The position numbers were made by a program, and so were the translations under genes. A stretch of DNA of 64,000 nucleotides from Shigella phage phi25-307, in the sequence record MG589383; one strand, 5' to 3'. The notes beneath the pieces are model-generated. The model was not told the DNA's origin and did no database searches. It worked only from the letters and a program-made list of their open reading frames with translations. Shown one piece after another: positions 974 through 24,420 of the stretch. Numbering within the stretch: the first letter of the stretch is position 1; each line of letters opens with the position of its first letter.

Positions 974-1002
974 ATAATAACATAACCATAGACCTTGTAA
1001 AC
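974..1002 (-). promoter_or_regulatory. early sigma70-type promoter (-35 GTTTAC, -10 TATTAT, 17-nt spacer)
   Basis: Plus strand shows gtaaac at 997-1002 and ataata at 974-979; -10 flanked by inverted repeat ggtctat/atagacc. Confidence 0.6.
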
Positions 1003-1004
1003 AA

Positions 1005-1292
1005 CTAAAAGAAACTTTTTTCGGTATTTTTTCCACTGAACCAAACCGATTTCGGAATTTTCTGTAATTTTTCAGATTTAAGTTTCTCTTCCTGTTCTTT
1101 CTTATATGCATCCTTGTCGTACTGGAACAACTCTAGGGCATTCTTTTGTAGACGGTCTAAGGTAATTAAGGCTTTAGTTTTTCCTTTCAAGGAAGAGTCC
1201 TGGCGAACCTCCTCGCTATATTGCATCGTAGAACTAACTATACGATGAGCATAGAGTTCGACTGCTGCTTTAATTTTTTGCATAAAATCCAT
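1005..1292 (-). CDS. hypothetical protein, 95 aa
   Basis: ORF track; ATG at 1290-1292 with AGAGGA RBS. Confidence 0.55.
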   Translation of the reverse strand: MDFMQKIKAAVELYAHRIVSSTMQYSEEVRQDSSLKGKTKALITLDRLQKNALELFQYDKDAYKKEQEEKLKSEKLQKIPKSVWFSGKNTEKSFF

Positions 1293-1430
1293 AACATATC
1301 CTCTTTGATTTGTACATCATTATTTTTAAATATTTCTATGCCCTCAGTAGGTTCCTGGTGTCCTTCTTTGAGGTAAGCCATATGATTATTCATCTTTATG
1401 GCTTTTGTTACCTCAGAACTTCCTATAAGC

Positions 1431-2432
1431 TTATTTCAGTAAAGTTACTTCAGAGATTTCCTCCCAACCATCTTTATCAGTTGAAATAAAATCTGCTACG
1501 TAAAGAGCCGTACGTAATGATACATTGCGAAGACGAGATACGTTAGCCTTCATCCAGGACAATGCTTTATACGTTTCTGCATCCGTCAGACCACGTTTCT
1601 GCATCATGTCAGTAGATAATATTACATCTTCAACTCGAACCATAATCTCTTCATTAGAGTGTACTCCAAGGTCGAGATACACTGAACGAGATACTAAAGC
1701 TTGAAGGTGTGGGGCAAGTTTCGAACCGCGTTCTAACTCTTTATCGATATCAACGTTAGTAATGAAAACGATAGTACCTTCAAACTCAAATTCTTTATCA
1801 ATACCCTTATCATCGAGATAAGATGACGCAGTGCTCCAACAAACTTTGCGTTTATCTCCGGTATCTAATGCTGCTTTAAGAAGGTTCAAGATGTCCATAT
1901 CTGAGAATACGTCAACGTCGTCGATTAAGAGAACGCTGTCTGCATCACGGTTGAGCCAAAGTTGTTCGTAAAGGCCAATACCAGAGATTTTACCATTAAT
2001 GCTTTTGTATTTGATGAAACCGTTATCATTAGCATTATTAAGTGCTTTATCCAGAGAATACGTCTTACCAATACCAGCTGCACCTGAAATAATGAGTGAA
2101 CGAATTTTACCATCGATAATGCCATTCGTCATCATGTTCATTACTTTAAAGCGTTTGTTGATACGAGTTTTCATATCTTCAGTGCTTTCAACAACTGCAA
2201 CTGGTGACGTCTCAACTCTTTCCATTACGATGTCTGATTTGAAGACCCATACTCCACGTTCAGAACCATCAATCATAACGAAAATTTTACCATCACCTAA
2301 GTGGGAACATTCAGGATTAAGCTTTGCCGGGAACCAGGTCTTTGTGGCAACATAAGAACCAGAGATTTCGTTATTACGATAGATACCTTTTTTGATTTGA
2401 ACGTTGAACATTTTATTCTCCAATTTACTCAT
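1431..2432 (-). CDS. P-loop NTPase (AAA+-like) with N-terminal domain of unknown function
   Basis: Walker A GAAGIGKT, Walker B-like VLLIDDVD, sensor-like TIVFITN in translation; ATG 2430-2432; early promoter 2450-2478. Confidence 0.7.
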   Translation of the reverse strand: MSKLENKMFNVQIKKGIYRNNEISGSYVATKTWFPAKLNPECSHLGDGKIFVMIDGSERGVWVFKSDIVMERVETSPVAVVESTEDMKTRINKRFKVMNMMTNGIIDGKIRSLIISGAAGIGKTYSLDKALNNANDNGFIKYKSINGKISGIGLYEQLWLNRDADSVLLIDDVDVFSDMDILNLLKAALDTGDKRKVCWSTASSYLDDKGIDKEFEFEGTIVFITNVDIDKELERGSKLAPHLQALVSRSVYLDLGVHSNEEIMVRVEDVILSTDMMQKRGLTDAETYKALSWMKANVSRLRNVSLRTALYVADFISTDKDGWEEISEVTLLK

Positions 2433-2449
2433 TTCGTTTCGATAGGTCT

Positions 2450-2478
2450 ATAATAACATGTTTAAAGCAAAAGTAAAC
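2450..2478 (-). promoter_or_regulatory. early sigma70-type promoter
   Basis: gtaaac 2473-2478, ataata 2450-2455 on plus strand; 17-nt spacer. Confidence 0.6.
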
Positions 2479-2480
2479 AA

Positions 2481-2699
2481 TTATTTGCGACGAGATTTTT
2501 TGGTAAGAGGTTGAAAGAACACTGCTTTACCGGCTGGGGTTAAGGTGACTCGTAATGCATTACCGATTCCTAAGGATGCTTTAACTAAACCTTTAGCTTT
2601 CAGTTCACCGAATGCTTGACGTTGTTCTGCATCACGAGTGTTAACCATAAGACCTTTATCACCTGCTTCACGAATCATTTCTAACATTTTGGTTTTCAT
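2481..2699 (-). CDS. small basic protein, 72 aa
   Basis: ORF track frame; start refined to ATG 2697-2699 with GAGGAG RBS (track start at 2756 is a GTG inside the promoter); early promoter 2728-2756. Confidence 0.5.
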   Translation of the reverse strand: MKTKMLEMIREAGDKGLMVNTRDAEQRQAFGELKAKGLVKASLGIGNALRVTLTPAGKAVFFQPLTKKSRRK

Positions 2700-2727
2700 T
2701 TTGTTCTCCTCTTGTTTTGATAGGTCT

Positions 2728-2756
2728 ATAGTATCATATCCTAAAAGCATGTACAC
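2728..2756 (-). promoter_or_regulatory. early sigma70-type promoter
   Basis: gtacac 2751-2756 and atagta 2728-2733 on plus strand (GTGTAC/TACTAT on minus). Confidence 0.5.
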
Positions 2757-2774
2757 TACTTTTTAAAAATATTT

Positions 2775-2803
2775 TAACCCCCTAAAGGGACCCGAAGGTC
2801 CCC
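2775..2803 (-). terminator. intrinsic terminator-like hairpin
   Basis: gggacc-cgaa-ggtccc stem-loop after the stop of 2808-3089, followed by U-rich run on minus strand. Confidence 0.4.
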
Positions 2804-2807
2804 ACAT

Positions 2808-3089
2808 TTACTTATCGCACTTAGCAACATAATTAGGCATATCACAGAATACGGAGCGAGTAACTACTCGGCCCTTTGACCATGCTTCAGTTGCTTGTCC
2901 GGCCGTGCTATTAATATAGCTTGATCTAATGTTCTCAATACCCTGAGAATGTGATGCATTTACCGAACCATTAGAAGGCCCAGAAGACTGGTTACCACCA
3001 GCTCCTGCACTACCGCCAGCAGCACCCGTGGTAGCACCAACAGAGAATGCCATCATTACTGCGAATAAACCAATTACTAATTTTTTCAT
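2808..3089 (-). CDS. secreted Gly/Ser-rich small protein (N-terminal signal peptide, C-terminal Cys pair)
   Basis: MKKLVIGLFAVMMAFSVGA hydrophobic leader, GAAGGSAGAGG tract, CDMPNYVAKC; GAGGT RBS. Confidence 0.55.
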   Translation of the reverse strand: MKKLVIGLFAVMMAFSVGATTGAAGGSAGAGGNQSSGPSNGSVNASHSQGIENIRSSYINSTAGQATEAWSKGRVVTRSVFCDMPNYVAKCDK

Positions 3090-3120
3090 ATTTACCTCAA
3101 GTTAATGGTTATTTATCTAC

Positions 3121-4110
3121 TTATTTATAGTAAGAATTATGATTTTCGAGATAGACTTGTTCAAGGAAGTCATCCCAGAAACTCATATCTACTTTTTGTT
3201 GCATGCCGTTCTTGGCAGCTTGTTCTGATGCTTGTTCAACTTGGTCAACGATATCTTCTAGGAATTCTTGTACAGTTTTAAATGTATGTTTACCAAGCTT
3301 AACATCGAGAATAAATGGAGCATCCTGAAGTGGGTAAACCAGGTCGCCTGTTTTGTAAATTTCCAATAATTGAAGTCCACCACGACATGCATGACTCAAT
3401 GCTTTCCAGTCAATACCTTCGTTAGCTTCTGCCTTACGAGCACGTTCACCATAGTTCTCTTCCAGTTTAACCAGGATGGCATTGAACTCTTTATTGGTTA
3501 ACGTGTCTTGGAATTTACGGTCTAACAGATTATAGAATGTTTGCTTACCTGTTTTCTCGTTTTCAGTTTCAATCCACGAAGCAAATTCACCTACGGGCAG
3601 AACATTCTTCATATGTGATAAACGAATTACTGCACCATTATCAAAGTATTGTCCCCATTCATTAGAACGTTTAAGGGCTTGACGAAGAACAGCCAGTCGA
3701 GAACCCTTGACGCCGTATTTAGAAGCTTGCTTACGAACATACCCTAAATAAGATTTCATGTTAGTAGTATAGAAACGAGACCTGTTGTCTTGAATATACT
3801 TCCACACGTCAGGCAAATCAGATTTAACTACTAAACTTGGTGGAGTGTGAAGCATATCTAATGCGACGGTTTCACCATCCGCAGCTAGTTTAAAGAAATA
3901 TTTGAGACTATACAACTCATGGTCCACGTCGTCTTTTGTGTTCTTAGAAGATGTGTTATTCGTGTTCTTGCTCATATGTTCTTTAACGTTACCGGTCAAG
4001 ATGTCACGAGCATGAGGGACGTAAATTTCTTTAAAATCAACGTCAGATTCAGGAGTAGACGTTCCATAAAGGTGGCTACCAAAGTAGCCTTTCATAATTG
4101 TTTTCATCAT
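3121..4110 (-). CDS. Pol-beta superfamily nucleotidyltransferase-like protein, 329 aa
   Basis: GSHLYGTSTPESDVDF matches the hG[GS]x9-13Dh[DE]h nucleotidyltransferase signature; ATGATGA overlap with upstream membrane-protein gene. Confidence 0.7.
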   Translation of the reverse strand: MMKTIMKGYFGSHLYGTSTPESDVDFKEIYVPHARDILTGNVKEHMSKNTNNTSSKNTKDDVDHELYSLKYFFKLAADGETVALDMLHTPPSLVVKSDLPDVWKYIQDNRSRFYTTNMKSYLGYVRKQASKYGVKGSRLAVLRQALKRSNEWGQYFDNGAVIRLSHMKNVLPVGEFASWIETENEKTGKQTFYNLLDRKFQDTLTNKEFNAILVKLEENYGERARKAEANEGIDWKALSHACRGGLQLLEIYKTGDLVYPLQDAPFILDVKLGKHTFKTVQEFLEDIVDQVEQASEQAAKNGMQQKVDMSFWDDFLEQVYLENHNSYYK

Positions 4111-4580
4111 TTAGCCTTATATTCAAGAGTAGGACAGACTTTTTCTTTACGAGCTTTAAGGTATTCGCCTATTAATGATTTCTTACGTTCAATAGGCTCA
4201 AGTCCATTTTTAATTCGTTCTTGGTTTTGCGCAATGAACTCAATTTCTTTATAATATTTTCTGTCGTTATATTTGTCTAACAACCAAGATGGACCAATTA
4301 TCAACCCGGCAGAAATAAAAGCCATGACTGATACCATTAAAATGCCTACGCCAATTGAGGCCGGAACTAATGTCCATAGACTGCTAAAAACAAAGAATCT
4401 AGTTAAAATTTCCTGGCCAATGATTACGACTGCTGCTAAAATCGCAAATCCAATAATTGAAACAGACAATACTGGGATTAACGTTTTCCAAAAATAAGCA
4501 CACAACGTTTTAGGGCGATTCCATGTACTATTGAACGCGGCATAAATTTTAAAGTGCCAAGAGTTTTCATTGATAATCAT
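4107..4580 (-). CDS. membrane protein, 157 aa
   Basis: Two long hydrophobic segments (LIPVLSVSIIGFAILAAVVIIG; GVGILMVSVMAFISAGLIIG); AAGGAA RBS; stop overlaps downstream start. Confidence 0.6.
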   Translation of the reverse strand: MIINENSWHFKIYAAFNSTWNRPKTLCAYFWKTLIPVLSVSIIGFAILAAVVIIGQEILTRFFVFSSLWTLVPASIGVGILMVSVMAFISAGLIIGPSWLLDKYNDRKYYKEIEFIAQNQERIKNGLEPIERKKSLIGEYLKARKEKVCPTLEYKAK

Positions 4581-4589
4581 AATAATTCC

Positions 4590-5120: not shown

Positions 5121-5121
5121 A

Positions 5122-5301: not shown

Positions 5302-5408
5302 TTTACCATACTCGTTTCAATAAGATTCACTATGCCGTTTACCATGTTATAAGTAAACATCGGATAATTGTATTGTACTACAACATAAGCGATAAGCAAA
5401 AGTTTCAT
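5298..5408 (-). CDS. hypothetical small hydrophobic protein, 36 aa
   Basis: Hand-translated MKLLLIAYVVVQYNYPMFTYNMVNGIVNLIETSMVK; GGAG RBS; sits between early promoter 5437-5466 and next gene. Confidence 0.25.
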   Translation of the reverse strand: MKLLLIAYVVVQYNYPMFTYNMVNGIVNLIETSMVK

Positions 5409-5436
5409 TTTGTTCTCCATTTGTTTTGGTAGGATT

Positions 5437-5466
5437 ACTATATCATAGTCCTACCAAGACGTAAAC
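5437..5466 (-). promoter_or_regulatory. early promoter with flanking inverted repeat
   Basis: gtaaac 5461-5466, actata 5437-5442; -10 flanked by ggtagga/tcctacc. Confidence 0.5.
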
Positions 5467-5672: not shown

Positions 5673-5679
5673 AATGTCC

Positions 5680-5859
5680 TCACATAATCTCGTTAACATA
5701 CATTTGCAATTCGGTGTGGGCATCTGCCATCTTTTTCATAGCTCTGTTAATGTCGATGTCTCCATCTTCGCAACCATGAGCATTTTCCCAATCAGATACC
5801 GCATTAGCGTACTCTTCAATCAAAAACATCAACTTAGAAATCTTTTCTTTACGTGTCAT
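5680..5859 (-). CDS. hypothetical small protein, 59 aa (T4 rI.-1 position)
   Basis: ORF track frame; start refined to ATG 5857-5859 with GAGGAG RBS; early promoter 5887-5915. Confidence 0.5.
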   Translation of the reverse strand: MTRKEKISKLMFLIEEYANAVSDWENAHGCEDGDIDINRAMKKMADAHTELQMYVNEIM

Positions 5860-5886
5860 AACGTTCTCCTCTAGTAAGTAAGGACT

Positions 5887-5915
5887 ACTATAACACAACC
5901 TGAGGAAAAGTAAAC
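5887..5915 (-). promoter_or_regulatory. early sigma70-type promoter
   Basis: gtaaac 5910-5915, actata 5887-5892; follows the terminator at 5924-5954. Confidence 0.55.
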
Positions 5916-5923
5916 TGATAGAT

Positions 5924-5954
5924 GCCAAAAAGCCCCAACCATAAGGAAGGGGCT
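5924..5954 (-). terminator. intrinsic terminator after rI
   Basis: gcccc...ggggc hairpin followed by TTTTTGG on minus strand. Confidence 0.55.
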
Positions 5955-9029: not shown

Positions 9030-9488
9030 CTAGATTTTAATCACTGCTTTAGAAGCTTTTCCTGGTAGTCGTTTACTGTTAATAATAGCCATTCTGCATT
9101 GAAGAGTCTTCATTTTGAATGCTGGACTTTCGCGACAAACTGTAAGTCCTAACCAAAGATTTCCATCAGTTATTTCTAAACGGCCTGGACGATATTCGAC
9201 ACCTTCGACAAAATCTTCATCAACATCCGGACGTGCCGGCATTGATAAAAATTCTGCAACTTCTTTAACATGATTTTTTACTTTACGAAATAATTCAAAA
9301 ACGTAGTTCTCATCTATTTCTCTCTGTATAGCACGATCTAAGAGATGTTGAGAATACTTGATATGAAAGCCTGGTAGTCCAAGAGACTTTGCAGCATCTT
9401 TTATACCGGCATTTATTTTGCGGAACTCCGTTTCAAAGATTCGACGGAGTTTATTACGGCGGATAAAAACGTCAGAATTGATAGTCAT
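9030..9488 (-). CDS. regB: RegB site-specific endoribonuclease
   Basis: Translation MTINSDVFIRRNKLRR...FHIKYSQHLLDRAIQREIDE...GRLEITDGNLWLG...QCRMAIINSKRLPGKASKAVIK matches T4 RegB as recalled. Confidence 0.9.
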   Translation of the reverse strand: MTINSDVFIRRNKLRRIFETEFRKINAGIKDAAKSLGLPGFHIKYSQHLLDRAIQREIDENYVFELFRKVKNHVKEVAEFLSMPARPDVDEDFVEGVEYRPGRLEITDGNLWLGLTVCRESPAFKMKTLQCRMAIINSKRLPGKASKAVIKI

Positions 9489-9517
9489 TTTTGATTTCTC
9501 CTCTAGTTGACAGTTCT

Positions 9518-9546
9518 ATAGTAACACATCTAGAGGAGAAGTAAAC
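9518..9546 (-). promoter_or_regulatory. early promoter of regB with flanking inverted repeat
   Basis: gtaaac 9541-9546, atagta 9518-9523; flanked by ctcctctag/ctagaggag. Confidence 0.55.
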
Positions 9547-11962: not shown

Positions 11963-12043
11963 TTTGTTCTCTCTAGGTTTAGACCATTCCATGGCCCATG
12001 AATTGTCCATTTTCCGTATTTACCACTCCAAGTAATTATGAAT

Positions 12044-12073
12044 ATACTATCACAATTCTAGGAGAAAGTAAAC
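12044..12073 (-). promoter_or_regulatory. early sigma70-type promoter
   Basis: gtaaac 12068-12073, atacta 12044-12049. Confidence 0.45.
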
Positions 12074-13024: not shown

Positions 13025-13339
13025 TTATTCTTTAGGGAAGTTTTTAGAGTATGCGTCATAAAGTTTATTGCCGATGCGACGGAAGACTCTAGCTGCAAAA
13101 CGGTTTTCAGGGTTTTTAATCATGATTTGCATCATGTAAGTTCCTGCATCCGAAAGAGCTTCTTCATAGTACCCATTAATTTCTTTAAGAGTCCTACGTT
13201 TACCACCAGGACCATCAACAGTAATTTTCCATTTACCTGTAGAAGTGCGGCTCGGTGGCTCAACTTGTTCAATCCAAATATAACCACCTTCAACGCGTTG
13301 ATTGGCGGATTCTGCAATAAATTCTTTATACGTTTTCAT
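13025..13339 (-). CDS. internal-protein-like protein with CTS, 104 aa
   Basis: Starts MKTYKEFIAES; no match to IPI/II/III recognised. Confidence 0.7.
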   Translation of the reverse strand: MKTYKEFIAESANQRVEGGYIWIEQVEPPSRTSTGKWKITVDGPGGKRRTLKEINGYYEEALSDAGTYMMQIMIKNPENRFAARVFRRIGNKLYDAYSKNFPKE

Positions 13340-13369
13340 TTTTGTTTCCTTGTTTGTTTTGATAGAGTA

Positions 13370-13399
13370 ATTATACCATATTAATACTTAAGCGTAAAC
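13370..13399 (-). promoter_or_regulatory. early sigma70-type promoter (-10 TATAAT)
   Basis: gtaaac 13394-13399, attata 13370-13375. Confidence 0.5.
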
Positions 13400-13669: not shown

Positions 13670-14083
13670 TTAGTAAATTGATTTACCATAGTATTTGTAC
13701 CAAGTAGGACGCTGAGCAATTTTTTCATCTAAGCGTGCTTGACTTATCGCAATGGACGCTTCGGACGGGACATAATTATTACGAAATTCGGCAGGGATGT
13801 CGGAAATATCCTGGACAGTCGTGTCCTTGATTTTGAAACCACGTTTCAAGCATTCAGCGATTAACTCGATTTGACGTAAACGTAAAAATTCGAGTTTGTC
13901 GTAAAAGAATGTTACATGACCTGTGCCTAAGATAAATGTTGGAGAGATTTTAAAATCCTTTACACGTTTACCGTTTTGAACATGTTTACGGACTGCACCA
14001 AATACACGTGGTAATTCACGATACTCGGCCATAAGATGTTGGTCGGTCAGTTCAGAAACAAGTGTTAAATTGATACGGGTCAT
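13670..14083 (-). CDS. denV: endonuclease V (pyrimidine-dimer DNA glycosylase/AP lyase)
   Basis: [12 protein letters not shown]...[18 protein letters not shown]...TWYKYYGK matches T4 DenV as recalled; start refined to ATG 14081-14083 with GGAGG RBS. Confidence 0.9.
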
Positions 14084-14110
14084 AATTTCCTCCAAGTAGT
14101 TGATGAATGT

Positions 14111-14140
14111 ATAGTATCAAAACCCTTGGAGGAAGTAAAC
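14111..14140 (-). promoter_or_regulatory. early promoter of denV with flanking inverted repeat
   Basis: gtaaac 14135-14140, atagta 14111-14116; flanked by cctccaag/cttggagg. Confidence 0.55.
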
Positions 14141-15867: not shown

Positions 15868-16173
15868 TTATTTTCCTCGACATTCTTTAATGAAATTTTC
15901 TAGATTGGTAGATTCAATAGCTTTTTTACGAGCTTCTGCGTGTTCTTCTTCAGACAATTTACATTTATAATTGACCCAGACATTATGGTCGAAACTAGTC
16001 GTGGCATATAATAACAATGCTCCAACGAATAGCAAAAACGGTGATAAGAATACAAAACCAGGAACACCATCCATATCGTAAGCCTTTTGTAATACTGCAA
16101 CAGAAAGAGCTGCGTAAAAAGGTGATGCAAATATTGTTAAAAGACCAATTCGGTTGGTTTCGCCTAATTTCAT
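15868..16173 (-). CDS. membrane protein with C-terminal ENFIKECR motif, 101 aa
   Basis: Two hydrophobic segments; ATG 16171-16173, GAGGAG RBS; early promoter 16202-16231. Confidence 0.6.
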   Translation of the reverse strand: MKLGETNRIGLLTIFASPFYAALSVAVLQKAYDMDGVPGFVFLSPFLLFVGALLLYATTSFDHNVWVNYKCKLSEEEHAEARKKAIESTNLENFIKECRGK

Positions 16174-16201
16174 AATATTCTCCTCATGTTTTAATAGGAC
16201 T

Positions 16202-16231
16202 ACTATAACATAGTCCTATCATGTTGTAAAC
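16202..16231 (-). promoter_or_regulatory. early promoter with flanking inverted repeat
   Basis: gtaaac 16226-16231, actata 16202-16207; flanked by ataggact/agtcctat. Confidence 0.55.
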
Positions 16232-17228: not shown

Positions 17229-17468
17229 TTAAATTTCACGACATGCGATATCATATTCATCCCAGAGGTCATCGTGTGAAGCCTCTACCAATGGAACGAT
17301 TGTACCATTTATGTCTTCATTATAAGGGCAAATTGTACAGTGTGCATCTTCGAATCGAATGCCTTTGTGTTCAGATTTTTTATAACGCATATCGAATATC
17401 TTTGCAAACTTTTCACGAGTAATGGTTTTACCAACCACTTTGGTTCCGATACTTTCGTAATAAATCAT
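17229..17468 (-). CDS. hypothetical small Cys-rich protein, 79 aa
   Basis: ORF track; GGAG RBS; early promoter 17497-17526. Confidence 0.55.
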   Translation of the reverse strand: MIYYESIGTKVVGKTITREKFAKIFDMRYKKSEHKGIRFEDAHCTICPYNEDINGTIVPLVEASHDDLWDEYDIACREI

Positions 17469-17496
17469 TGTGGACTCCGTTTAATTTGATAGGACT

Positions 17497-17526
17497 ACTA
17501 TAACATAGCCCTATCTTGTTGTAAAC
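17497..17526 (-). promoter_or_regulatory. early promoter with flanking inverted repeat
   Basis: gtaaac 17521-17526, actata 17497-17502. Confidence 0.55.
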
Positions 17527-18325: not shown

Positions 18326-18681
18326 TTTCTACATTCCTTAATAAAGTTTTCGATTGTTTCATTTTCACGTCTAGCTAGGAGTTCATTATAACTAATCATT
18401 TGAGAAGCGTAAATCTTTTTATTTTTCTTGTTATGGTTTATAAAATCGTAGTAAAAATAGACTACAGTACAAAATGATGCGATGGATGCAAAGGCTTGGG
18501 TATACCGTAAGTCCTGCCATTGGTCTGTGAATCCACCAGTGTTCCCTATAAATCCTAACACAACGCCGTCAATAAGAAATCCGACTAATCCAAAGGCAAA
18601 TCCCATGCCAATACTCATAATAAAAATTAGAATGTTCTCGCCAAGAGAAGGCCATACGGTTAAGAGTTGAGGCTTTTGCAT
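18322..18681 (-). CDS. membrane protein with C-terminal ENFIKECR motif, 119 aa
   Basis: Hydrophobic N-terminal two-thirds; AAGGAG RBS. Confidence 0.6.
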   Translation of the reverse strand: MQKPQLLTVWPSLGENILIFIMSIGMGFAFGLVGFLIDGVVLGFIGNTGGFTDQWQDLRYTQAFASIASFCTVVYFYYDFINHNKKNKKIYASQMISYNELLARRENETIENFIKECRK

Positions 18682-19661: not shown

Positions 19662-19669
19662 GTATTATT

Positions 19670-20263
19670 TTATTTCAAAGAGTTAATATATTCTTGTACA
19701 TCAGCAGAAGTGGTTTCGACACCAGCTGGAGTGCCATTGAACGTTTCAACACGAGTCAGAGTGTCTTCGATATCAACCTTAGTCAGTGCAGCGATTTCAA
19801 TTACATCATCAGCCGTAGAGATACCAAGGGCATTGGCTGCTCGAGTTTCACGAATGTATTCGAGTTTGATTGCCAGATTCTGACGAGCATCGTCAAGTTC
19901 AACCACCTTACGAGCAATTTCAATTCGCATAGCGGCATACCCGTCAGCTTTTGTATTAAGTTGTTCGGCAGTTCGACGATACAGAAGACCAAGCTTGGCA
20001 TGCATGGTAACATCTTGTCCTTCAGCCAGGAGCTTACGAATTTCACGTTCCTTAGAAGCGGCTTGCTTGTTCTTTTCATTAACAAGTTCGCGAATACGTT
20101 TTTCTTCATTAATAGATTTAACAGAAGCCGTTTTTAGTTCTTTGATTTGGGTAATCAACTTATCTGCAGCTGCGTTATACTGTTCTTCGACAGTCAGATT
20201 TTTAGCCATAGCAGTACTCAGTTTAGTGCGGATGAATTCAACAAGTTTCTTCAGTGTGTTCAT
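19670..20263 (-). CDS. coiled-coil protein, 197 aa
   Basis: Heptad-rich K/E/A/L composition; start refined to ATG 20261-20263; promoter 20305-20334 upstream, terminator 19638-19661 downstream. Confidence 0.55.
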
Positions 20264-20304
20264 ATTATTACCTTTCAATTGGTGGTTTATTATCCAATGA
20301 GAGC

Positions 20305-20334
20305 ATTATACTCTGCTCTCAAGAGTTTGTAAAT
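20305..20334 (-). promoter_or_regulatory. early promoter with flanking inverted repeat
   Basis: gtaaat 20329-20334, attata 20305-20310; flanked by gagagc/gctctc. Confidence 0.45.
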
Positions 20335-20561
20335 TATTTTTTAATCAAATTGACATAAAACTCGGCGTCTTCCGGGTGCATGCCTTCACAGTATTCTTCA
20401 ACCATGAACTTCTTAACAGCTTCATAAGGACCACTCAGATTAAGCTCAGTTGTCCAGAACTTGGAATCTTGGGCTGAATCGATACGAACTTCAGGGTGAC
20501 GGTTGCGAATAACTTCTTCGGTGTATTCATAATCAACGACATCAATACTAACTTTAGCCAT
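20334..20561 (-). CDS. hypothetical small acidic protein, 75 aa
   Basis: ORF track; AGAGGAAAAC RBS; early promoter 20590-20619. Confidence 0.55.
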   Translation of the reverse strand: MAKVSIDVVDYEYTEEVIRNRHPEVRIDSAQDSKFWTTELNLSGPYEAVKKFMVEEYCEGMHPEDAEFYVNLIKK

Positions 20562-20589
20562 TTTGTTTTCCTCTTGATTTGATGTGATT

Positions 20590-20619
20590 ACTATAACATA
20601 AACTTACTTAGATGTAAAT
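20590..20619 (-). promoter_or_regulatory. early sigma70-type promoter
   Basis: gtaaat 20614-20619, actata 20590-20595. Confidence 0.45.
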
Positions 20620-20772: not shown

Positions 20773-20802
20773 TTTGTTTACTCCTCTGTAGTTGATAAGT
20801 CT

Positions 20803-20832
20803 ATAGTATCACCATCCTTGGTGCTTGTACAT
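20803..20832 (-). promoter_or_regulatory. early sigma70-type promoter
   Basis: gtacat 20827-20832, atagta 20803-20808; conserved leader gttgataagtctatagtatcac. Confidence 0.5.
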
Positions 20833-20840
20833 CATTATTT

Positions 20841-21146
20841 TTAATTTTTCCAACTTAACAACTTGTAGTGTCCTTCATTAACACGTGGTTTATCCCAAGA
20901 AATACTAATATATGATTCACTGTCAATAGAAGTCGCCGGGTTTTTCTCTACCGTAAGACCTTCACTTTCTAGCCATTCAATAGTATTTGCGCATAAATCG
21001 GAAGAACACCTAATCGGAAACTGGCAAGATTTTTCACCTTTAGATGCAGCGTTATACATCTTTTCTAAAATACGCTTTTGCACGTTTTTAAAAATAGTTT
21101 CAGCGGATTCTTCAGATTTTTTATTCAGTTCAGTATAAAGATTCAT
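20841..21146 (-). CDS. hypothetical protein, 101 aa
   Basis: ORF track frame; start refined to ATG 21144-21146 directly after GAGGAG RBS; early promoter 21172-21201. Confidence 0.55.
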   Translation of the reverse strand: MNLYTELNKKSEESAETIFKNVQKRILEKMYNAASKGEKSCQFPIRCSSDLCANTIEWLESEGLTVEKNPATSIDSESYISISWDKPRVNEGHYKLLSWKN

Positions 21147-21171
21147 AATATTCTCCTCATTAATAGGGCTC

Positions 21172-21201
21172 ATAATATCTCAATCATAAGCCCGTGTAAA
21201 C
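21172..21201 (-). promoter_or_regulatory. early sigma70-type promoter
   Basis: gtaaac 21196-21201, ataata 21172-21177. Confidence 0.5.
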
Positions 21202-21203
21202 AA

Positions 21204-21467
21204 TTATTTCATATTATTGAAATAATCTTCCGCATCAAAATCGTTATCATGGTAAACTTTGGTAGACGATTTGGCGTAACCTTCAGCTGAGAACATATTA
21301 ATCACAACTTTAATTGTATACCACTGTCCGTCTTCATTACCCATTACTGCATAGGTTTCATACACCGGGTGTTCGGGTCCAATAACTTTAATATCATTCA
21401 CCGTACGTCCGAAATCTTCTGGAACGCATTTCATAAAGAAGTTGAACAGTTCACCGTAATTATCCAT
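21204..21467 (-). CDS. hypothetical small acidic protein, 87 aa
   Basis: ORF track frame; start refined to ATG 21465-21467 with GGAGA RBS; early promoter 21511-21540. Confidence 0.55.
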   Translation of the reverse strand: MDNYGELFNFFMKCVPEDFGRTVNDIKVIGPEHPVYETYAVMGNEDGQWYTIKVVINMFSAEGYAKSSTKVYHDNDFDAEDYFNNMK

Positions 21468-21510
21468 TTCATTCTCCAAGTTATTTTCTGTATCGGTAGT
21501 TGATAGTTGT

Positions 21511-21540
21511 ATAGTACCACGGAAGAACAGGGATGTAAAC
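21511..21540 (-). promoter_or_regulatory. early sigma70-type promoter
   Basis: gtaaac 21535-21540, atagta 21511-21516. Confidence 0.5.
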
Positions 21541-21666
21541 AGTTTTGTGAAAAAAAAAGTTTTTGTGGAATTCTAGGGCAGGGAGAGGAAATTAAAAAGT
21601 AGGATAATATATTATAAAGGGTATAAACTAAATGATGTGCCTAGAGAGGTCCAGAAAGGCCTAGAT

Positions 21667-21697
21667 ACCAAAAAGCCCCAACCTTTCGGAAGGGGCT
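21667..21697 (-). terminator. intrinsic terminator closing the tRNA/small-RNA transcription unit
   Basis: gcccc...ggggc hairpin plus TTTTTGG on minus strand; near-duplicate of the 5924-5954 terminator. Confidence 0.55.
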
Positions 21698-21748
21698 ATG
21701 CCTTGCGGCAACCTTGTCGGGGTTCCACCTGCTAAGGCAAGTGTTTGT

Positions 21749-21840
21749 ACGAAACGCCGGGATTCGAACCCGGTTATTAAGCAGTTGACGCTACTCAATA
21801 TTTTTAAAAGGCCATATCTCGACCATATCCGAACGTTCCG
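21749..21840 (-). ncRNA. tRNA-like element (possible degenerate tRNA or small stable RNA)
   Basis: Canonical T-arm CCGGGTTCGAATCCCGG followed by 7-nt strand CGTTTCG that pairs with upstream CGGAACG; no convincing D or anticodon arm found by eye; in untranslated stretch downstream of the tRNAs. Confidence 0.3.
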
Positions 21841-22008
21841 TCAAAAACGCTACTCGGCTTACGGCAAAGATATTTCCTCGAATCGATAATTCTGTGCGCC
21901 GTTTCTGCTGTGATGTAAGGGGATATTAACGAATCATAAAGATTTATTAAGACCAGTCCTTACTCAGGGAACATCAGTCCGACGACTTGCCGGTAGCGAC
22001 CCGGCTTC

Positions 22009-22353
22009 TTATTTTGGCATATCATCAATTTGTTCTCGACGCCGACGCCATAGATTAATCGCTTCATAAACACATTCTGCGTTTGGTATATGACGGCAAT
22101 AATATAATGATTCGCGTTTCTGGAACCGATGTTGTAATGGAATTTCGTTTAAAAGGTCTTTACGATCAAAGTATTCAAAACTAGTTAACCCAGAACGATT
22201 TTTAAGGAACTTCCAATGGCCAAATTCATTTTGGAAATAAACGTAATCAGCGTGTTGATATAACGAATTAATCAACCGGTCAGAAATAACTGTATCCTGT
22301 TCATTAAAATAAAACGTTAAATCATGAACTACCAGATAAATATTACCTTTCAT
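22009..22353 (-). CDS. hypothetical protein, 114 aa
   Basis: ORF track frame; start refined to ATG 22351-22353 with GAGGAAAAT RBS so it does not overlap tRNA-Arg. Confidence 0.5.
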   Translation of the reverse strand: MKGNIYLVVHDLTFYFNEQDTVISDRLINSLYQHADYVYFQNEFGHWKFLKNRSGLTSFEYFDRKDLLNEIPLQHRFQKRESLYYCRHIPNAECVYEAINLWRRRREQIDDMPK

Positions 22354-22371
22354 ATTTTCCTCACTTAAAGT

Positions 22372-22448
<77 letters not shown>

Positions 22449-22454
22449 AATATA

Positions 22455-22528
22455 TGACCCAGACCAGATTCGAACTGGTAACCTTTCCCTTATGAGGGGA
22501 CTGCTGCTAACCGTTGAGCTACAGGGCC
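22455..22528 (-). tRNA. tRNA with CAT anticodon (Met or lysidine-Ile type)
   Basis: Acceptor GGCCCTG/CTGGGTC (one mismatch), D-loop with GG, anticodon loop CTCATAA, T-arm ACCAG-TTCGAAT-CTGGT; D and anticodon stems imperfect. Confidence 0.55.
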
Positions 22529-22607
22529 TAAATAACTTTCTATTATGAAAGGCACTTTAGAGCACCTTTGGTAATAGAGTGTATGAATTAATAATAACAC
22601 ATAATTC

Positions 22608-23123
22608 TTAAAGCAAATCAATCATTTTAACGGTTGGCAAAACGATTTCTTCTTCAATATAAGCAAATTCGACACGTTCAACTACACGCAAGAAATCATA
22701 ATCATAATATTCAGAAGCATGGCCAAGAATATCAGTGAGACCTTCTGATACCAAATATCCGTTCTCACGGAACAGGTCAAATACACGTGATTCGTCTTCT
22801 TCAGATTTATTACCGAGGTCGACTTCAATATCAAAGACCTTTTTAATGAATTCTGGATAAAGCTGGTCTGAGAACAGTCCTTCAACCAAGTATTCATAGA
22901 TTAAAAGCGAGCAATCACTGAATAGTGTATTACCACAGTAACGTTCAGCTTTAGTACTAGAATGACGACTCTTAAATTTCTTCAAGAGATATTTAAACTG
23001 TTGGAGCTCATGCTCTTCTACACCAAATAATGTTTTGGTTTTATAGTTGTCACCGTCATTTTCCCAAGTAGTGACATCAATTACATAACCTTTAGGAATT
23101 GTACTGCCTAAACAAATATTCAT
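22608..23123 (-). CDS. hypothetical protein, 171 aa
   Basis: ORF track; immediately upstream of the tRNA pair. Confidence 0.55.
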   Translation of the reverse strand: MNICLGSTIPKGYVIDVTTWENDGDNYKTKTLFGVEEHELQQFKYLLKKFKSRHSSTKAERYCGNTLFSDCSLLIYEYLVEGLFSDQLYPEFIKKVFDIEVDLGNKSEEDESRVFDLFRENGYLVSEGLTDILGHASEYYDYDFLRVVERVEFAYIEEEIVLPTVKMIDLL

Positions 23124-23127
23124 TTAC

Positions 23128-23418
23128 TCACCGTACCATATTAATGTAATTATATTCAATGCAACGTAATTTCAAAGGATTCTTGAAAATATCATATTCA
23201 AGAGGACCTTTTTCTGTTTCAATAAAGAAATCAAAGTTAACTGTGTTAAATTTATCATCTTCACAGAGTAATTTAACCTGTGAAGACGAACGGTCGATGT
23301 AAACCTTTTCAACTTCAAAACATGTTAAAATGCCATAATCATCAATCAAGGCTTTAGCTGCTTCTTGATCATATTTATATCCATTTTCAATGGATGATAC
23401 TTTCGCATAAAGAATCAT
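23128..23418 (-). CDS. hypothetical protein, 96 aa
   Basis: ORF track; tightly packed in operon. Confidence 0.55.
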   Translation of the reverse strand: MILYAKVSSIENGYKYDQEAAKALIDDYGILTCFEVEKVYIDRSSSQVKLLCEDDKFNTVNFDFFIETEKGPLEYDIFKNPLKLRCIEYNYINMVR

Positions 23419-23420
23419 TA

Positions 23421-23795
23421 TTAACCTTTATCAACAATAGTATGTGTATGGGCATTTACGATTTGCCACCAGTCAAAACTATCGCCAAATCGTTTTGATT
23501 TATTGTCTTCAATAATTTGGCGTAATTCATCTTCAGTAGCGGCTTTCGCGATTAAATCAGCATATCCACCACGAGGATAATAATTATCACCTGCAAAAAG
23601 TAAAAAGTTTGGTTTAATATTATTAAACTCTTCAAGAGTAATAACTGTTCCACCAGGTTGAACAATATCTACATAACTATATCCTAATTTTTGAGCAGCA
23701 TCTACTGCTTCAAGCAGGGTATCATGAGCCCATCCAATTTGGCAATCTGGCTTTTCAGATGGATTAGCCTGATAATCCGCGTACACTTTATACAT
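23421..23795 (-). CDS. hypothetical protein, 124 aa
   Basis: ORF track frame; start refined to ATG 23793-23795 with AAAGGTGA RBS, 1 nt after upstream TAG. Confidence 0.55.
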   Translation of the reverse strand: MYKVYADYQANPSEKPDCQIGWAHDTLLEAVDAAQKLGYSYVDIVQPGGTVITLEEFNNIKPNFLLFAGDNYYPRGGYADLIAKAATEDELRQIIEDNKSKRFGDSFDWWQIVNAHTHTIVDKG

Positions 23796-23796
23796 T

Positions 23797-23982
23797 CTAT
23801 TCACCTTTTGCAATTTTATCCATAACGATAGCGATTAAGCCGATTAGAAATGCTACTACCAATGAGATAGAATTTTCTGTTGTTGTCAGTAGTCCACAAA
23901 TGAATCCTACAAACATCGAAAAACTAAAAGCCATTGAAGCAATTACTACAGCAACATTACGAATCAGTTCAGCACGTTTCAT
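23797..23982 (-). CDS. small membrane protein, 61 aa
   Basis: Two hydrophobic helices; GAGGAG RBS; early promoter 24011-24040. Confidence 0.5.
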   Translation of the reverse strand: MKRAELIRNVAVVIASMAFSFSMFVGFICGLLTTTENSISLVVAFLIGLIAIVMDKIAKGE

Positions 23983-24010
23983 TTTATTCTCCTCAGTAGT
24001 TGATAGGGTA

Positions 24011-24040
24011 ATAGTATCACTACCCTATCTAAAAGTAAAC
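24011..24040 (-). promoter_or_regulatory. early promoter with flanking inverted repeat
   Basis: gtaaac 24035-24040, atagta 24011-24016; flanked by gatagggta/taccctatc. Confidence 0.55.
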
Positions 24041-24051
24041 GGTTTTATAAA

Positions 24052-24360
24052 CTATTTTATTCCGCGTGATGCAATCGTATTCTGCCGTTTAACGCCAGTT
24101 TGTTTAAAGTTATGATTGTCGAGTTGATCGGTACGAGCAACTCCAAACGATGATTTAATCTTAGCTTTAGATCCTTTAGTTATAGAAATAAACATCTCGG
24201 GAGCCCCTTTCTTAAAGTCCGAAGCAATTACTTCAACACCGTTCTTAGCAAGTGACCTCAGAATTGCTTCCGCATACTCATCATCAAGACCCGCTTGAGT
24301 ATGAATAACGAATGTCTTTGGTGCAGCTGCTTCACAGATAAATTCTTTGAAAGTTTTCAT
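24052..24360 (-). CDS. internal-protein-like protein with CTS at the ipI locus, 102 aa
   Basis: Starts MKTFKEFICEA; directly upstream of 57B where T4 carries ipI; early promoter 24391-24420. Confidence 0.7.
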   Translation of the reverse strand: MKTFKEFICEAAAPKTFVIHTQAGLDDEYAEAILRSLAKNGVEVIASDFKKGAPEMFISITKGSKAKIKSSFGVARTDQLDNHNFKQTGVKRQNTIASRGIK

Positions 24361-24390
24361 TTTATTTTCCTAATTAATTTTGATAGGACT

Positions 24391-24420
24391 ACTATAACAT
24401 AGTCCTATCAGCATGTAAAC
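24391..24420 (-). promoter_or_regulatory. early promoter with flanking inverted repeat
   Basis: gtaaac 24415-24420, actata 24391-24396; flanked by ataggact/agtcctat. Confidence 0.55.

Follow-up and report, generated by a model that had tools for sequence, protein, structure and literature searches.

The 64,000-nt stretch of Shigella phage phi25-307 analysed here (MG589383; the window) comes from an RB69-like Mosigvirus of the T4 type. Its early promoters often overlap inverted repeats whose arms differ between copies but remain complementary. We wondered if these repeats represent a selected stem-loop and what role such a structure might have.

Early-promoter cassettes of the window

The repeated unit proposed in the initial annotation, GTTTAC followed after 17-18 nt by a TA(C/T)TAT-like -10, was confirmed by motif scan. 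Exact matches to GTTTAC-N16-19-TAYTAT number nine in the window versus 0.11 expected, all of them on the minus strand, which is the coding strand of the early region; relaxing the -10 to TANNAT gives 12 matches versus 1.2 expected. Using looser criteria (at most one mismatch in the -35, Shine-Dalgarno sequence and ATG required), 17 cassettes were detected in 974-24420 and one at 56845-56874, the latter being the copy that had been assigned to the late capsid cluster and indeed falls between genes 23 and 24. Since two further promoter-like sites occur within coding sequence (18385-18414 and 59686-59715), the original figure of about nineteen early promoters is fair. In RB69, 57 such promoters were predicted (Nolan et al. 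2006). Detected elements are as follows.

944..1002, minus: nrdC.8-homologue cassette (-35 997-1002, -10 974-979, ATG 946); tight hairpin, arms 987-995 / 968-976, MFE -13.6 kcal/mol, z -1.8, kept in 131-nt context fold
2409..2478, minus: nrdC.10-homologue cassette; no promoter-spanning hairpin, z +1.0
2697..2756, minus: cassette of 72-aa ORF (RB69ORF102c homologue), -35 GTGTAC; no hairpin; canonical terminator directly upstream (2776-2792)
5406..5466, minus: cassette of 36-aa ORF; tight hairpin, arms 5445-5460 / 5423-5438, core ttggtagga/tcctaccaa, z -3.6
5857..5915, minus: cassette of 59-aa ORF; weak spacer-to-Shine-Dalgarno pairing ttttcctc/gaggagaa, z -0.5, absent from 131-nt context fold; terminator-like hairpin directly upstream
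9486..9546, minus: regB early-promoter cassette; spacer 9523-9540 pairs with Shine-Dalgarno region 9496-9515 (ttctcctctag/ctagaggagaa), z -3.8
12008..12073, minus: cassette of ORF123c-like gene; nested helix, arms 12050-12073 / 12018-12041, leader pairing with the -35, a CTCC and aattgtga, z -3.6
13337..13399, minus: cassette of 104-aa ORF (internal-head-protein-like); no hairpin, z -0.6
14081..14140, minus: denV early-promoter cassette; Shine-Dalgarno-masking helix, arms 14117-14134 / 14087-14106 (ttcctccaag/cttggaggaa), z -5.0 (-4.9 in 131-nt context fold)
16171..16231, minus: cassette of 101-aa ORF; tight 12-bp hairpin, arms 16210-16221 / 16192-16203, z -4.0
17466..17526, minus: cassette of 79-aa ORF; tight hairpin, core arms 17505-17515 / 17488-17498 (gatagggctat/gtagtcctatc, one G.U pair included), z -4.1
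18385..18414, minus: promoter-like site ATTTAC-N18-TATAAT within e.3 coding sequence, outside the 18 cassettes; RB69 has GTTTAC in place of this ATTTAC
20261..20334, minus: e.6-homologue cassette, -35 ATTTAC; tight hairpin, arms 20314-20325 / 20294-20305 (tgagagca/tgctctca), z -2.9
20559..20619, minus: cassette of 75-aa frd.3-like ORF, -35 ATTTAC; no hairpin
21144..21201, minus: cassette of 101-aa ORF (RB69ORF146c-like); tight hairpin, arms 21185-21193 / 21166-21174 (gggcttatg/tatgagccc), z -3.8
21465..21540, minus: e.8-homologue cassette; no hairpin, z +0.6
23980..24040, minus: tRNA.4-homologue cassette; tight 12-bp hairpin, arms 24018-24029 / 24002-24013, z -2.9
24358..24420, minus: ipI cassette; tight 12-bp hairpin, arms 24399-24410 / 24381-24392, z -4.9
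56812..56874, minus: cassette of 89-aa ORF inserted between genes 23 and 24, which are encoded on the other strand, no same-strand gene upstream; sole pairing -35 with GTAAAC, z -1.6
59686..59715, minus: promoter-like site GTTTAC-N18-TACTAT within gp24.3-like ORF, 82 nt upstream of gp24.2-like start codon

Cassette spacers are 17 or 18 nt long, and A+T content of the 25 nt upstream reaches 74% versus 62% window-wide. A conserved leader element exists, but it is not the claimed GAGGAG ending: this is found in only 7 of 18 leaders (the rest carry GGAG, GGAGG or AGGA), and (C)CTATCAA at about -3 to +5 is better conserved.

Inverted repeats and compensatory pairing

All seven inverted-repeat pairs listed in the initial annotation were found at their cassettes: ggtctat/atagacc (974), ataggact/agtcctat (16202 and 24391), cctccaag/cttggagg (14111), gatagggta/taccctatc (24011), ggtagga/tcctacc (5437), ctcctctag/ctagaggag (9518) and gagagc/gctctc (20305). 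Their description as 7-9-bp repeats bracketing the -10 needs correction, since helices consist of 9-13 contiguous pairs and often extend into the 3' end of the -10 hexamer; at 9518 and 14111, moreover, the Shine-Dalgarno sequence serves as 3' arm, and the -10 is therefore not simply bracketed. In total, a hairpin is present in about 11 of 18 cassettes (about 60%) and marginal in two (5887, 56845); five (2450, 2728, 13370, 20590, 21511) lack a promoter-spanning hairpin. Folding of window cassettes gave z <= -2.9 against dinucleotide shuffles in 10 of 18, and 11 of 12 hairpins persist in 131-nt read-through contexts.

Chimeras were constructed from the 5' half of one cassette and the 3' half of another. 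Native window cassettes have a mean of -12.8 kcal/mol versus -9.3 for chimeras, and the native value was reached by none of 5000 permutations. Because half-swapping destroys the folds, complementarity is specific to each cassette. The comparison was extended to 181 distinct cassettes from T4-like contigs, with native mean -10.8 versus -7.9 for chimeras (z = -17). In this set, helices of at least 10 bp straddling the -10/start site number 45 versus 3.8 expected, and those wholly inside the leader are not enriched (1 versus 0.4 expected). Loop size has a median of 12 nt (quartiles 8-23), and the long loops fit RNA rather than cruciforms. Two main forms are distinguished: some hairpins sit tightly around the -10, others are long and pair spacer with Shine-Dalgarno sequence (regB, denV). 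The initial annotation had treated all repeats as a single class bracketing the -10. Spacer-to-Shine-Dalgarno helices of at least 9 bp are a minority feature (8.8% of cassettes versus 2.5% of chimeras).

Folding favours the sense over the antisense strand in 51 versus 20 cases, and in 28 of 31 tight hairpins. As the G.U excess comes mainly from conserved TGn/-10 elements (16 versus 2), with 21 G.T versus 14 A.C in the variable zone of stems, strand asymmetry is an equivocal test of RNA pairing.

Cassettes preceded by an upstream hairpin tend not to have a spanning one, and vice versa (odds ratio 0.44, p = 0.10). Cassettes without a same-strand gene upstream (56845) or right after a canonical terminator (2728) both lack a hairpin.

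At orthologous promoters of T4, Dhakavirus, Karamvirus and others, pairing is kept with different arms. This is in particular true for ipI, where T4 gatgaggta/tacctcatc differs from the window by five double changes, and for the 5437 cassette, whose T4 orthologue (gacaaga/tcttgtc) shows three. The regB helix has different arms in T4, Dhakavirus, PG7, EcS1 and Roth77, T4 and Dhakavirus carry ctcctgtag/ctacaggag at the denV position, and Shine-Dalgarno helices of both genes are kept with different arms across five genera. The 21144..21201 cassette was compared with the T4 e.7 promoter (ataggctcat/atgagcctat), and the 12008..12073 cassette is akin to T4 ipII/ipIII promoter regions. At tRNA.4, the T4 5' arm atagggt occupies another spacer position and Dhakavirus has gggct/agccc. 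At e.6, Dhakavirus has gaggac/gtcctc and no hairpin is found at the T4 promoter position; given also the five window cassettes without one, the hairpin is not obligatory. G.U pairs occur in variable stem parts (e.g. 17497, GRNsp7 ipI, T4 regB), and G.U intermediates between orthologous arms were found. Some orthologues even switch form: T4 and QL01 nrdC.8 carry a Shine-Dalgarno-masking helix in place of the tight hairpin, and regB switches in PG7 and Roth77, which argues for one shared RNA-level role. Some arm differences could reflect wholesale cassette replacement and not stepwise compensation.

Homologous promoters of related phages thus show the covariation on which the initial annotation had staked its proposal of a selected stem-loop, in agreement with the chimera comparison.

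Possible role of the hairpins

We consider it probable that these elements are T4-type sigma-70 early-promoter cassettes of the promoter early stem-loop (PeSL) type, in which the hairpin is confined to read-through RNA and insulates the individual genes. Each cassette comprises an A/T-rich UP-like tract, GTTTAC -35, 17-18-nt spacer, TAnnnT -10 and a start site predicted at the A of CCTATCAA, followed by short leader, Shine-Dalgarno sequence and ATG. In about 60% of cassettes, selection has maintained an inverted repeat whose 5' arm is in the spacer and precedes the start site of that cassette, the 3' arm being at or past this site. Since the hairpin straddles the promoter, it could form only in RNA reading through from upstream, which would contain both arms and fold; own-promoter RNA would lack the 5' arm and remain open. 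In the regB and denV subset, spacer-to-Shine-Dalgarno pairing points to translational masking: the fold would bury the GGAG ribosome-binding site, and read-through copies would be poorly translated and possibly shielded from RegB. Tight hairpins follow the stop codon of the upstream gene, ahead of the next ribosome-binding site, and most likely act as attenuators and/or 3'-end stability barriers; this is the weakest step of the explanation.

Alternatively, tight palindromes at the -10 might act in DNA, as cruciforms or hairpins in the melted non-template strand, modulating promoter opening or shut-off or serving as targets of a structure-specific nuclease (e.g. endonuclease VII). The tight class does consist of perfect or near-perfect 9-13-bp palindromes with 4-8-nt A/T-rich loops centred near -13, enrichment straddling the -10/start site suits DNA action centred on the promoter no less than action as RNA, the 21 versus 14 ratio of G.U to A.C in the variable zone is compatible with symmetric, duplex-level selection, and the mechanism of T4 early-promoter shut-off is stated as unknown (PMC2988021). 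However, roughly one selected helix in two has a loop of 12-30 nt and extends to the Shine-Dalgarno sequence, so that cruciform extrusion is implausible. Interchange of the two forms at orthologous promoters, G.U pairs in variable stem parts, better folding of the sense strand and lack of the repeat at 5 of 18 promoters also speak against a DNA-level element, which we regard as rather unlikely.

Slightly more doubtful is that the stem-loops serve solely as terminators of upstream genes, stopping read-through as proposed for PeSLs. No hairpin of the window is followed by a 3' T-run and none was flagged as a canonical terminator by terminator scan, so classical intrinsic termination is unlikely; moreover, stems are A/U-rich, and the 20-30-nt loops of Shine-Dalgarno-masking helices do not resemble those of terminators. 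On the other hand, the RB49 PeSL211/210 stem-loop is reported to have reduced downstream lacZ to the same extent as rrnB T1 (Arbiol et al. 2010, PMC2839356), and the hairpins studied here are intergenic, enriched only where read-through RNA would include them, and missing after a canonical terminator or without a same-strand gene upstream.

It is hardly credible that the complementarity is functionless, a by-product of promoter consensus or of whole-cassette copying around the genome. Near-identical arms are indeed common to several cassettes (16202, 24391, RB69 cassettes), the 3' arm shares sequence with the conserved CCTATC around the start site, and in the commonest fixed register native arms average 5.73 pairs versus 5.49 for permuted partners. 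Nevertheless, chimeras of the 181 cassettes fold much worse than natives, widely differing arms remain complementary, including orthologous sites with single-step G.U intermediates, and the T4 tRNA.4 promoter retains a complementary heptamer despite its shift within the spacer. A function as operators, through which a dimeric DNA-binding protein would regulate early transcription, is suggested by dyad symmetry overlapping the -10 (a classical repressor-site position) but can practically be dismissed, since arms are almost completely different between cassettes (ggtctat, gatagggta, gagagc, gggctta), registers vary and the Shine-Dalgarno sequence itself forms some of the arms, so that no single protein could read all palindromes.

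Gene exchange and known systems

The cassettes had further been proposed to drive modular gene shuffling, and individual events support this. Repeated cassettes of ~60-100 bp would offer homology for recombination deleting or swapping genes between them. Where the window has two cassettes (2450, 2728) flanking the 72-aa ORF, phiEC1 and ChristianSchoenbein lack this ORF and have one chimeric cassette apiece; the crossover points differ, and the two chimeras arose independently. In GRNsp7, the 75-aa frd.3-like ORF is absent, with breakpoints at cassettes 20305 and 20590, and replacement of ipI between two cassettes represents a further exchange. Statistics do not support the proposal: 16 of 48 gene-content breakpoints coincide with cassettes versus 24% expected under a gene-boundary null (p = 0.085, not significant), and clear evidence is confined to single cases.

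The window cassettes belong to an already known kind, PeSL, which the initial annotation had correctly invoked for T4-type phages (Arbiol et al. 2010, PMC2839356). In RB49 and phi1, the PeSL stem-loop lies mostly between -35 and -10 or overlaps the -10 (PMC2839356). Stems of RB49 PeSLs are G/C-rich, in contrast to those described here, and Shine-Dalgarno masking on read-through RNA, as predicted here, is not mentioned in PeSL papers. Our literature search turned up no transcript 3'-end mapping for T4. In T4 e, soc, 49 and I-TevI, the ribosome-binding site is masked on long transcripts and the promoter lies inside the 5' arm (PMC3014915); RegB cleavage at GGAG is blocked by RNA structure (PMC3014915). 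Similarly, anti-Shine-Dalgarno motifs of sigma-54 promoters silence read-through translation (bioRxiv 10.1101/086108).

Early-promoter cassettes and their hairpins

Positions 1-24500 of the window are 95-97% identical to RB69-like coliphages (Mosigvirus) over about 90% of their length, with phage S143_2 as the best match and RB69 at 96.3% identity. By RB69 annotation, these positions correspond to the early region on the minus strand, which extends from nrdC.6 to ipI via nrdC.8, tk, vs, regB, denV, e and the tRNAs. Its counterpart in T4-like phages has been called hyperplastic (PMC4122927). Two tRNA genes, Arg (tct) and Met (cat), are located at 22372-22448 and 22455-22528 (minus strand) and match the RB69 pair; the equivalent T4 site holds eight tRNA genes and the segB homing endonuclease gene.

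The early-promoter motif GTTTAC-N16-19-TAYTAT has nine matches in the window, all on the minus strand, against 0.11 expected from shuffles. Relaxing the -10 element to TANNAT raises the count to 12, with 1.2 expected. A generic sigma-70 scan yielded no enrichment (37 versus 43 and 51 versus 47 expected); the signal is carried by the phage-specific GTTTAC form only. Cassettes were counted with one mismatch tolerated in the -35 element and with a Shine-Dalgarno sequence and ATG required downstream. Seventeen cassettes at 974-24420 and one at 56845-56874 were obtained, having the promoter form GTTTAC-N17/18-TAYWRT and the consensus aaAataGTTTACat - N - TaTG.TAttaTAg.CcTATCaAat. Each cassette is designated here by the low coordinate of its -35/-10 motif. 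The 25 nt located 5' of the -35 element are 74% A+T (62% window-wide), and A content in the 12 nt upstream is 45% versus 31%. In all 18 cassettes a site of GGAG, GAGG or AGGA type is present, and an ATG follows the -10 at 25-45 nt. The predicted transcription start is the A of CCTATCAA, in agreement with the C-rich positions -3 to -1 in the logos of Nolan et al. 2006 (PMC1524935).

Seventeen cassettes lie in the nrdC-tk-vs-regB-denV-e-tRNA-ipI region, many of them preceding ORFs annotated as hypothetical in RB69, and the remaining one (56845) occupies the gene 23/24 insertion site. Nolan et al. predicted 57 early promoters genome-wide in RB69, many before novel ORFs. The promoter set is identical to ours: the -35 is GTTTAC, positions -40 to -44 are A-rich and C residues occupy -3 to -1; hairpins, stem-loops and palindromes do not occur in that paper (PMC1524935). 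Besides the 18 cassettes, two promoter-like sites were found within coding sequence, and these may be internal promoters for the next gene:

18385-18414, minus strand: site in the e.3 homologue; ATTTAC in the window, GTTTAC in RB69
59686-59715, minus strand: site in a gp24.3-like ORF

Each cassette was folded from the -35 through the ATG, with z-scores derived from dinucleotide shuffles. Eleven of the 18 fold at -13.6 to -20.3 kcal/mol (z <= -2.9 in ten), and seven have no convincing stem-loop. Eleven of 12 hairpins survive in 131-nt read-through contexts, in both minimum-energy and centroid structures. All seven arm pairs quoted in the initial annotation were recovered at window cassettes; the helices it described as 7-9 bp long are indeed present, but comprise 9-13 contiguous pairs. 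A search of the whole window against Rfam 15 at gathering threshold returned the two tRNAs only, and the hairpins match no curated family.

Hairpin classes at the window cassettes (all minus strand)
Tight hairpins: cassettes 974 (nrdC.8), 5437 (36-aa ORF), 16202, 17497, 20305 (e.6), 21172, 24011 (tRNA.4) and 24391 (ipI); one arm in the spacer, the other at about -8 to +4; loops of 4-10 nt hold the first half of the -10
Long hairpin, cassette 9518 (regB): ttctcctctag/ctagaggagaa; beginning of the spacer paired to the Shine-Dalgarno sequence; 11 contiguous pairs including GGAG
Long hairpin, cassette 14111 (denV): ttcctccaag/cttggaggaa; beginning of the spacer paired to the Shine-Dalgarno sequence; 10 contiguous pairs including GGAG
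Variants of the long hairpin: cassette 12044, nested version; cassette 5887, weak
No hairpin: cassettes 2450 (nrdC.10), 2728 (72-aa ORF), 13370, 20590 and 21511

At regB and denV, the Shine-Dalgarno sequence is covered by the 3' arm, whose partner is located 5' of the proximal start site; T4, Dhakavirus and others preserve the pairing through compensatory changes. This description does not extend to the tight class. Cassette 12044 (12008-12073, minus strand) forms a three-part nested helix, in which the -35 hexamer itself, a CTCC and aattgtga pair with the leader. Related sequences occur at the T4 ipII and ipIII promoters. The true start codon of this cassette is apparently at 12010, with the GGAG unusually distant.

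Cassette-specific pairing and its covariation

As a control for cassette-specific pairing, chimeras were constructed by joining the 5' half of one cassette to the 3' half of another. When each 5' half of the window cassettes was combined with all other 3' halves, the mean was -12.8 kcal/mol for natives and -9.3 for chimeras; 0 of 5000 permutations attained the native mean. A wider sample, assembled from an IMG/VR motif scan and from the loci of eleven annotated phages, consisted of 225 distinct cassettes, reduced to 181 by removal of near-duplicates. Here natives averaged -10.8 and chimeras -7.9 kcal/mol (z = -17), while folds of -16 kcal/mol or better were reached by 21.5% of natives versus 3.6% of chimeras. 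The pairing is thus cassette-specific and general among phages with GTTTAC-type early promoters. One fixed-register structure for every cassette was rejected: at least 9 of 11 pairs formed in only 13 of the 181 cassettes, and permuted partners did nearly equally well (mean 5.73 pairs for natives versus 5.49). Since the registers vary, the register-free chimera test was used instead.

The initial annotation had named missing covariation of the arms at homologous positions in relatives as a refutation of its interpretation. Orthologous promoters of T4 do pair as well, with different arms.

Pairing at orthologous promoters
ipI: window gataggact/agtcctatc; T4 gatgaggta/tacctcatc, double changes at five pairs; GRNsp7, a G.U intermediate
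36-aa ORF (5437): window ggtagga/tcctacc; T4 gacaaga/tcttgtc, three double changes
regB: window ctcctctag/ctagaggag; T4 cctcttgactg/cagttaagagg; Dhakavirus ctcctgtag/ctacaggag; PG7 and Roth77, shorter CTCC/GGAG helices plus a nested tight hairpin
denV: window cctccaag/cttggagg; T4 and Dhakavirus ctcctgtag/ctacaggag
tRNA.4: window, tight 12-bp hairpin; T4, complementary heptamer atagggt kept, shifted within the spacer
nrdC.8: window, tight hairpin; T4 and QL01, Shine-Dalgarno-masking helix

The e.6 promoter of T4 has no hairpin, which is thus not universal. In an alignment of 15 hand-picked tight-class cassettes (A2), double changes occur at 8 of 11 pairs, 93.9% of cells are paired versus 81% in shuffles, and none of 500 shuffles attains the observed covariation score; because these sequences were chosen for having hairpins, the alignment documents diversity of the arms and is not an unbiased test. 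The MAFFT alignment of regB promoters is partly misaligned, and its pair counts understate the helix seen sequence by sequence.

Upstream of denV in PG7, EcS1 and fHe-Yen9-01, the Shine-Dalgarno sequence is masked by another hairpin (ATGTCCTCC...GGAGGACAT), whose 5' arm begins at the end of the -10, so that transcripts from the promoter itself would carry it too. The regulatory logic at denV is different here. Salmonella phage GRNsp7, filed under Tequatrovirus, is mosaic in the early region: its regB protein resembles that of T4 (76% identity to the window), and its denV protein and promoter are 99% identical to the window.

Helix position and the proposed role in read-through

The position of helices of at least 10 bp was determined in the 181 cassettes taken with 60 nt of upstream flank, with expectations from shuffles. 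Helices straddling the -10 and start site were observed 45 times versus 3.8 expected. Those wholly upstream of the promoter, representing terminator-like hairpins of the upstream gene, numbered 19 (3.4 expected), and a single one was located wholly in the leader (0.4 expected). The excess of straddling helices, set beside the leader count, indicates that selection favours helices which the promoter's own transcript cannot form. At least seven Watson-Crick pairs across the -10 are present in 67 cassettes: 32 with tight helices, 19 with helices ending in the leader and 16 with helices covering the Shine-Dalgarno sequence. The median loop is 12 nt (quartiles 8-23). Helices of at least 10 bp joining spacer and Shine-Dalgarno sequence occur in 7.7% of the 181 cassettes versus 1.1% of chimeras. 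Because the loops are long and the 3' arms coincide with the Shine-Dalgarno sequence, about half of the helices can sensibly be read only as acting at the RNA level. Orthologues swap tight and Shine-Dalgarno-masking forms, which suggests a shared role.

The tight palindromes centred on the -10 might act on DNA, with a cruciform or a hairpin in the melted non-template strand switching off very strong promoters; the Shine-Dalgarno-masking helices would then be a separate RNA-level device. Switch-off would follow a change in template topology or phage proteins, and could help to account for the way T4-type early promoters fall silent 2-3 minutes after infection, a shut-off as yet unexplained. Among 71 cassettes whose sense or antisense strand forms a strong hairpin, folding favours the sense strand in 51; among tight hairpins it does so in 28 of 31. 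A first count gave 12 G.U against 3 A.C, the excess residing mostly in conserved TGn/-10 pairs (16 versus 2); in the variable zone there are 21 G.T and 14 A.C, so that the strand test of RNA versus DNA is equivocal. We consider such a switch-off at the DNA level very improbable, and a DNA-level role of the tight palindromes in general improbable. Operators for one protein were rejected because the arm sequences differ too much. Canonical Rho-independent terminators, i.e. G/C-rich hairpins followed by a U-tract, were dismissed since no promoter hairpin of the window is followed by a 3' T-run (the sequences that follow are ATCAAAA, ATCAACTAC or AATCAAAA); a terminator scan of the window likewise placed none of these hairpins among terminator-like sites.

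In the RNA-level reading that we prefer, the hairpin would be specific to transcript origin. Read-through RNA started upstream would hold both arms, and RNA from the cassette's own promoter would not have them together. At regB and denV the predicted fold buries GGAG and, by analogy with T4 e, soc, 49 and I-TevI, should block 30S binding. It should also block RegB cleavage, because RNA structure protects GGAG from RegB (PMC3014915). For the tight class, the likely effect would be attenuation of read-through and/or a barrier stabilising the 3' end of the upstream message. The sole relevant experiment that we found concerns phage RB49, in which the stem-loop of a promoter-early stem-loop (PeSL) cassette reduced expression of downstream lacZ to the same extent as rrnB T1 (Arbiol et al. 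2010, PMC2839356). Our literature search retrieved neither 3'-end maps of T4 nor an earlier description of -10-spanning hairpins at T4 early promoters.

Several cassettes differ in what lies upstream of them:

2776-2792, minus strand: canonical terminator-like hairpin with T-run, directly 5' of cassette 2728, which has no promoter-spanning hairpin
about 5925-5950, minus strand: canonical terminator-like hairpin with T-run, directly 5' of cassette 5887, which has only a weak promoter-spanning hairpin
56845-56874, minus strand: cassette with no same-strand gene upstream and no hairpin

Cassettes 2728 and 56845 fit the read-through reading, as anecdotes. In general, cassettes with a spanning hairpin tend not to have an upstream one, and vice versa (odds ratio 0.44, p = 0.10).

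Cassette 56845 belongs to an 89-aa ORF (56545-56874 with the cassette, minus strand), which is inserted on the opposite strand in the late head-gene cluster, between gene 23 (54924-56492, plus strand) and gene 24 (56916-58199, plus strand). The ORF is followed by a terminator-like hairpin, GGGAGACCGAAGTCTCCC, just past the end of the convergent gene 23 on the other strand. At this site, RB69 has two tiny ORFs only.

Taken together, motif, repeats, pairing and covariation confirm what the initial annotation had observed and support its interpretation. Since the promoters were predicted before in RB69 and the PeSL concept is published, this is mainly a rediscovery in a phage group without described stem-loops. 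Our analysis adds direct statistical and comparative evidence of selected pairing across several T4-like genera, T4 included. It further adds that the selected helices are specifically those absent from the promoter's own transcript, and that a subset, at regB and denV, is predicted to bury the ribosome-binding site. If the cassettes do insulate against read-through, each small early gene would be an expression unit insulated against its neighbours. Free shuffling of such genes with no disturbance of dosage would then be understandable, and the annotation and engineering of T4-like genomes would benefit.

Gene shuffling and comparison with known systems

The 72-aa ORF, a homologue of RB69ORF102c, is situated between tandem cassettes 2728 and 2450 (2481-2756 for the ORF with its cassette, and 2409-2478). 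It is missing in phiEC1 and ChristianSchoenbein, each of which has one chimeric cassette at this site. One crossover lies in the shared TTATTATAGACCTATC of the -10/+1 segment, the other in the Shine-Dalgarno/ATG segment; these different crossover points indicate two independent events. In phiEC1, ChristianSchoenbein, T4, GRNsp7 and QL01, the place of the ipI ORF (24052-24360, flanked by cassettes 24391 and 24011) is taken by non-homologous DNA of similar length (about 300-490 nt), with homology breaking 2-76 nt from the two cassettes. GRNsp7 also does not contain the ORF bounded by cassettes 20305 and 20590.

Breakpoints at most 100 nt from a cassette amount to 22-39%, versus 14% for random positions (P = 0.002-0.25, significant for some comparators). 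Against a gene-junction null, 16 of 48 breakpoints compare with 24% expected (p = 0.085; Fisher p = 0.34), an excess that is not significant. The modular shuffling envisaged in the initial annotation is therefore visible as single recombination events that left chimeric cassettes, but not as significant enrichment over gene junctions. A PeSL-type recombination signature is present; a special role of the cassettes beyond breaks between genes is unsupported by the statistics.

PeSL cassettes have been described in RB49/phi1, T4/PST and KVP40/nt-1 (Arbiol et al. 2010, PMC2839356; Comeau et al. 2014, PMC4122927), and the RB69 group is mentioned in neither paper. The proposed match to them holds at the level of sequence definition. 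Like PeSLs, the window cassettes are composite repeated units of A/T-rich tract, early promoter of sigma-70 type (predicted here), stem-loop, Shine-Dalgarno sequence and start codon. They are likewise intergenic, located in hyperplastic early regions beside small ORFs, and have chimeric counterparts where the ORF between two tandem cassettes is lost. The RB49/phi1 stem-loop is mostly found between -35 and -10 or over the -10, as in the window. On the contrary, window promoters are of the T4-type GTTTAC / TAYWRT form and PeSL promoters of the TTGACA / TATAAT form, and window stems are A/U-rich and varied, in contrast to the G(n)-loop-C(n) stems of PeSLs. The subset pairing spacer with Shine-Dalgarno sequence falls outside the five published PeSL positional subclasses. 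T4/PST stem-loops were placed just upstream of the promoter (PMC4122927), whereas the T4 locus analysed here also has hairpins straddling the start site.

In T4 e, soc, 49 and I-TevI, the ribosome-binding site is known to be sequestered on long transcripts (reviewed in PMC3014915). In these genes, as in the window, the promoter lies in or beside the 5' arm, and the 3' arm is the Shine-Dalgarno sequence or AUG. Their upstream-started transcripts fold and are untranslated, while transcripts from the embedded promoter lack the 5' arm and are translated. The embedded T4 promoters are, however, late and serve temporal delay, whereas those of the window are early, with upstream transcription early too. 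A further difference is that the feature recurs here at several genes (regB and denV, and nrdC.8 in T4 and QL01).

Similar logic applies to the anti-Shine-Dalgarno insulators at sigma-54 promoters of E. coli (Levy et al., bioRxiv 10.1101/086108). These are short CT-rich motifs inside a promoter, 5' of its own start site; only on read-through RNA do they pair with the downstream ribosome-binding site, whose translation they silence. The predicted window arrangement resembles them in this respect. The sigma-54 motifs measure 3-5 nt and belong to another promoter class in a bacterial genome, in contrast to the 9-15 bp helices at sigma-70-type phage promoters of the window. In addition, the window differs from the sigma-54 case in possessing a second class of tight hairpins, not involving the Shine-Dalgarno sequence, beside the masking helices.
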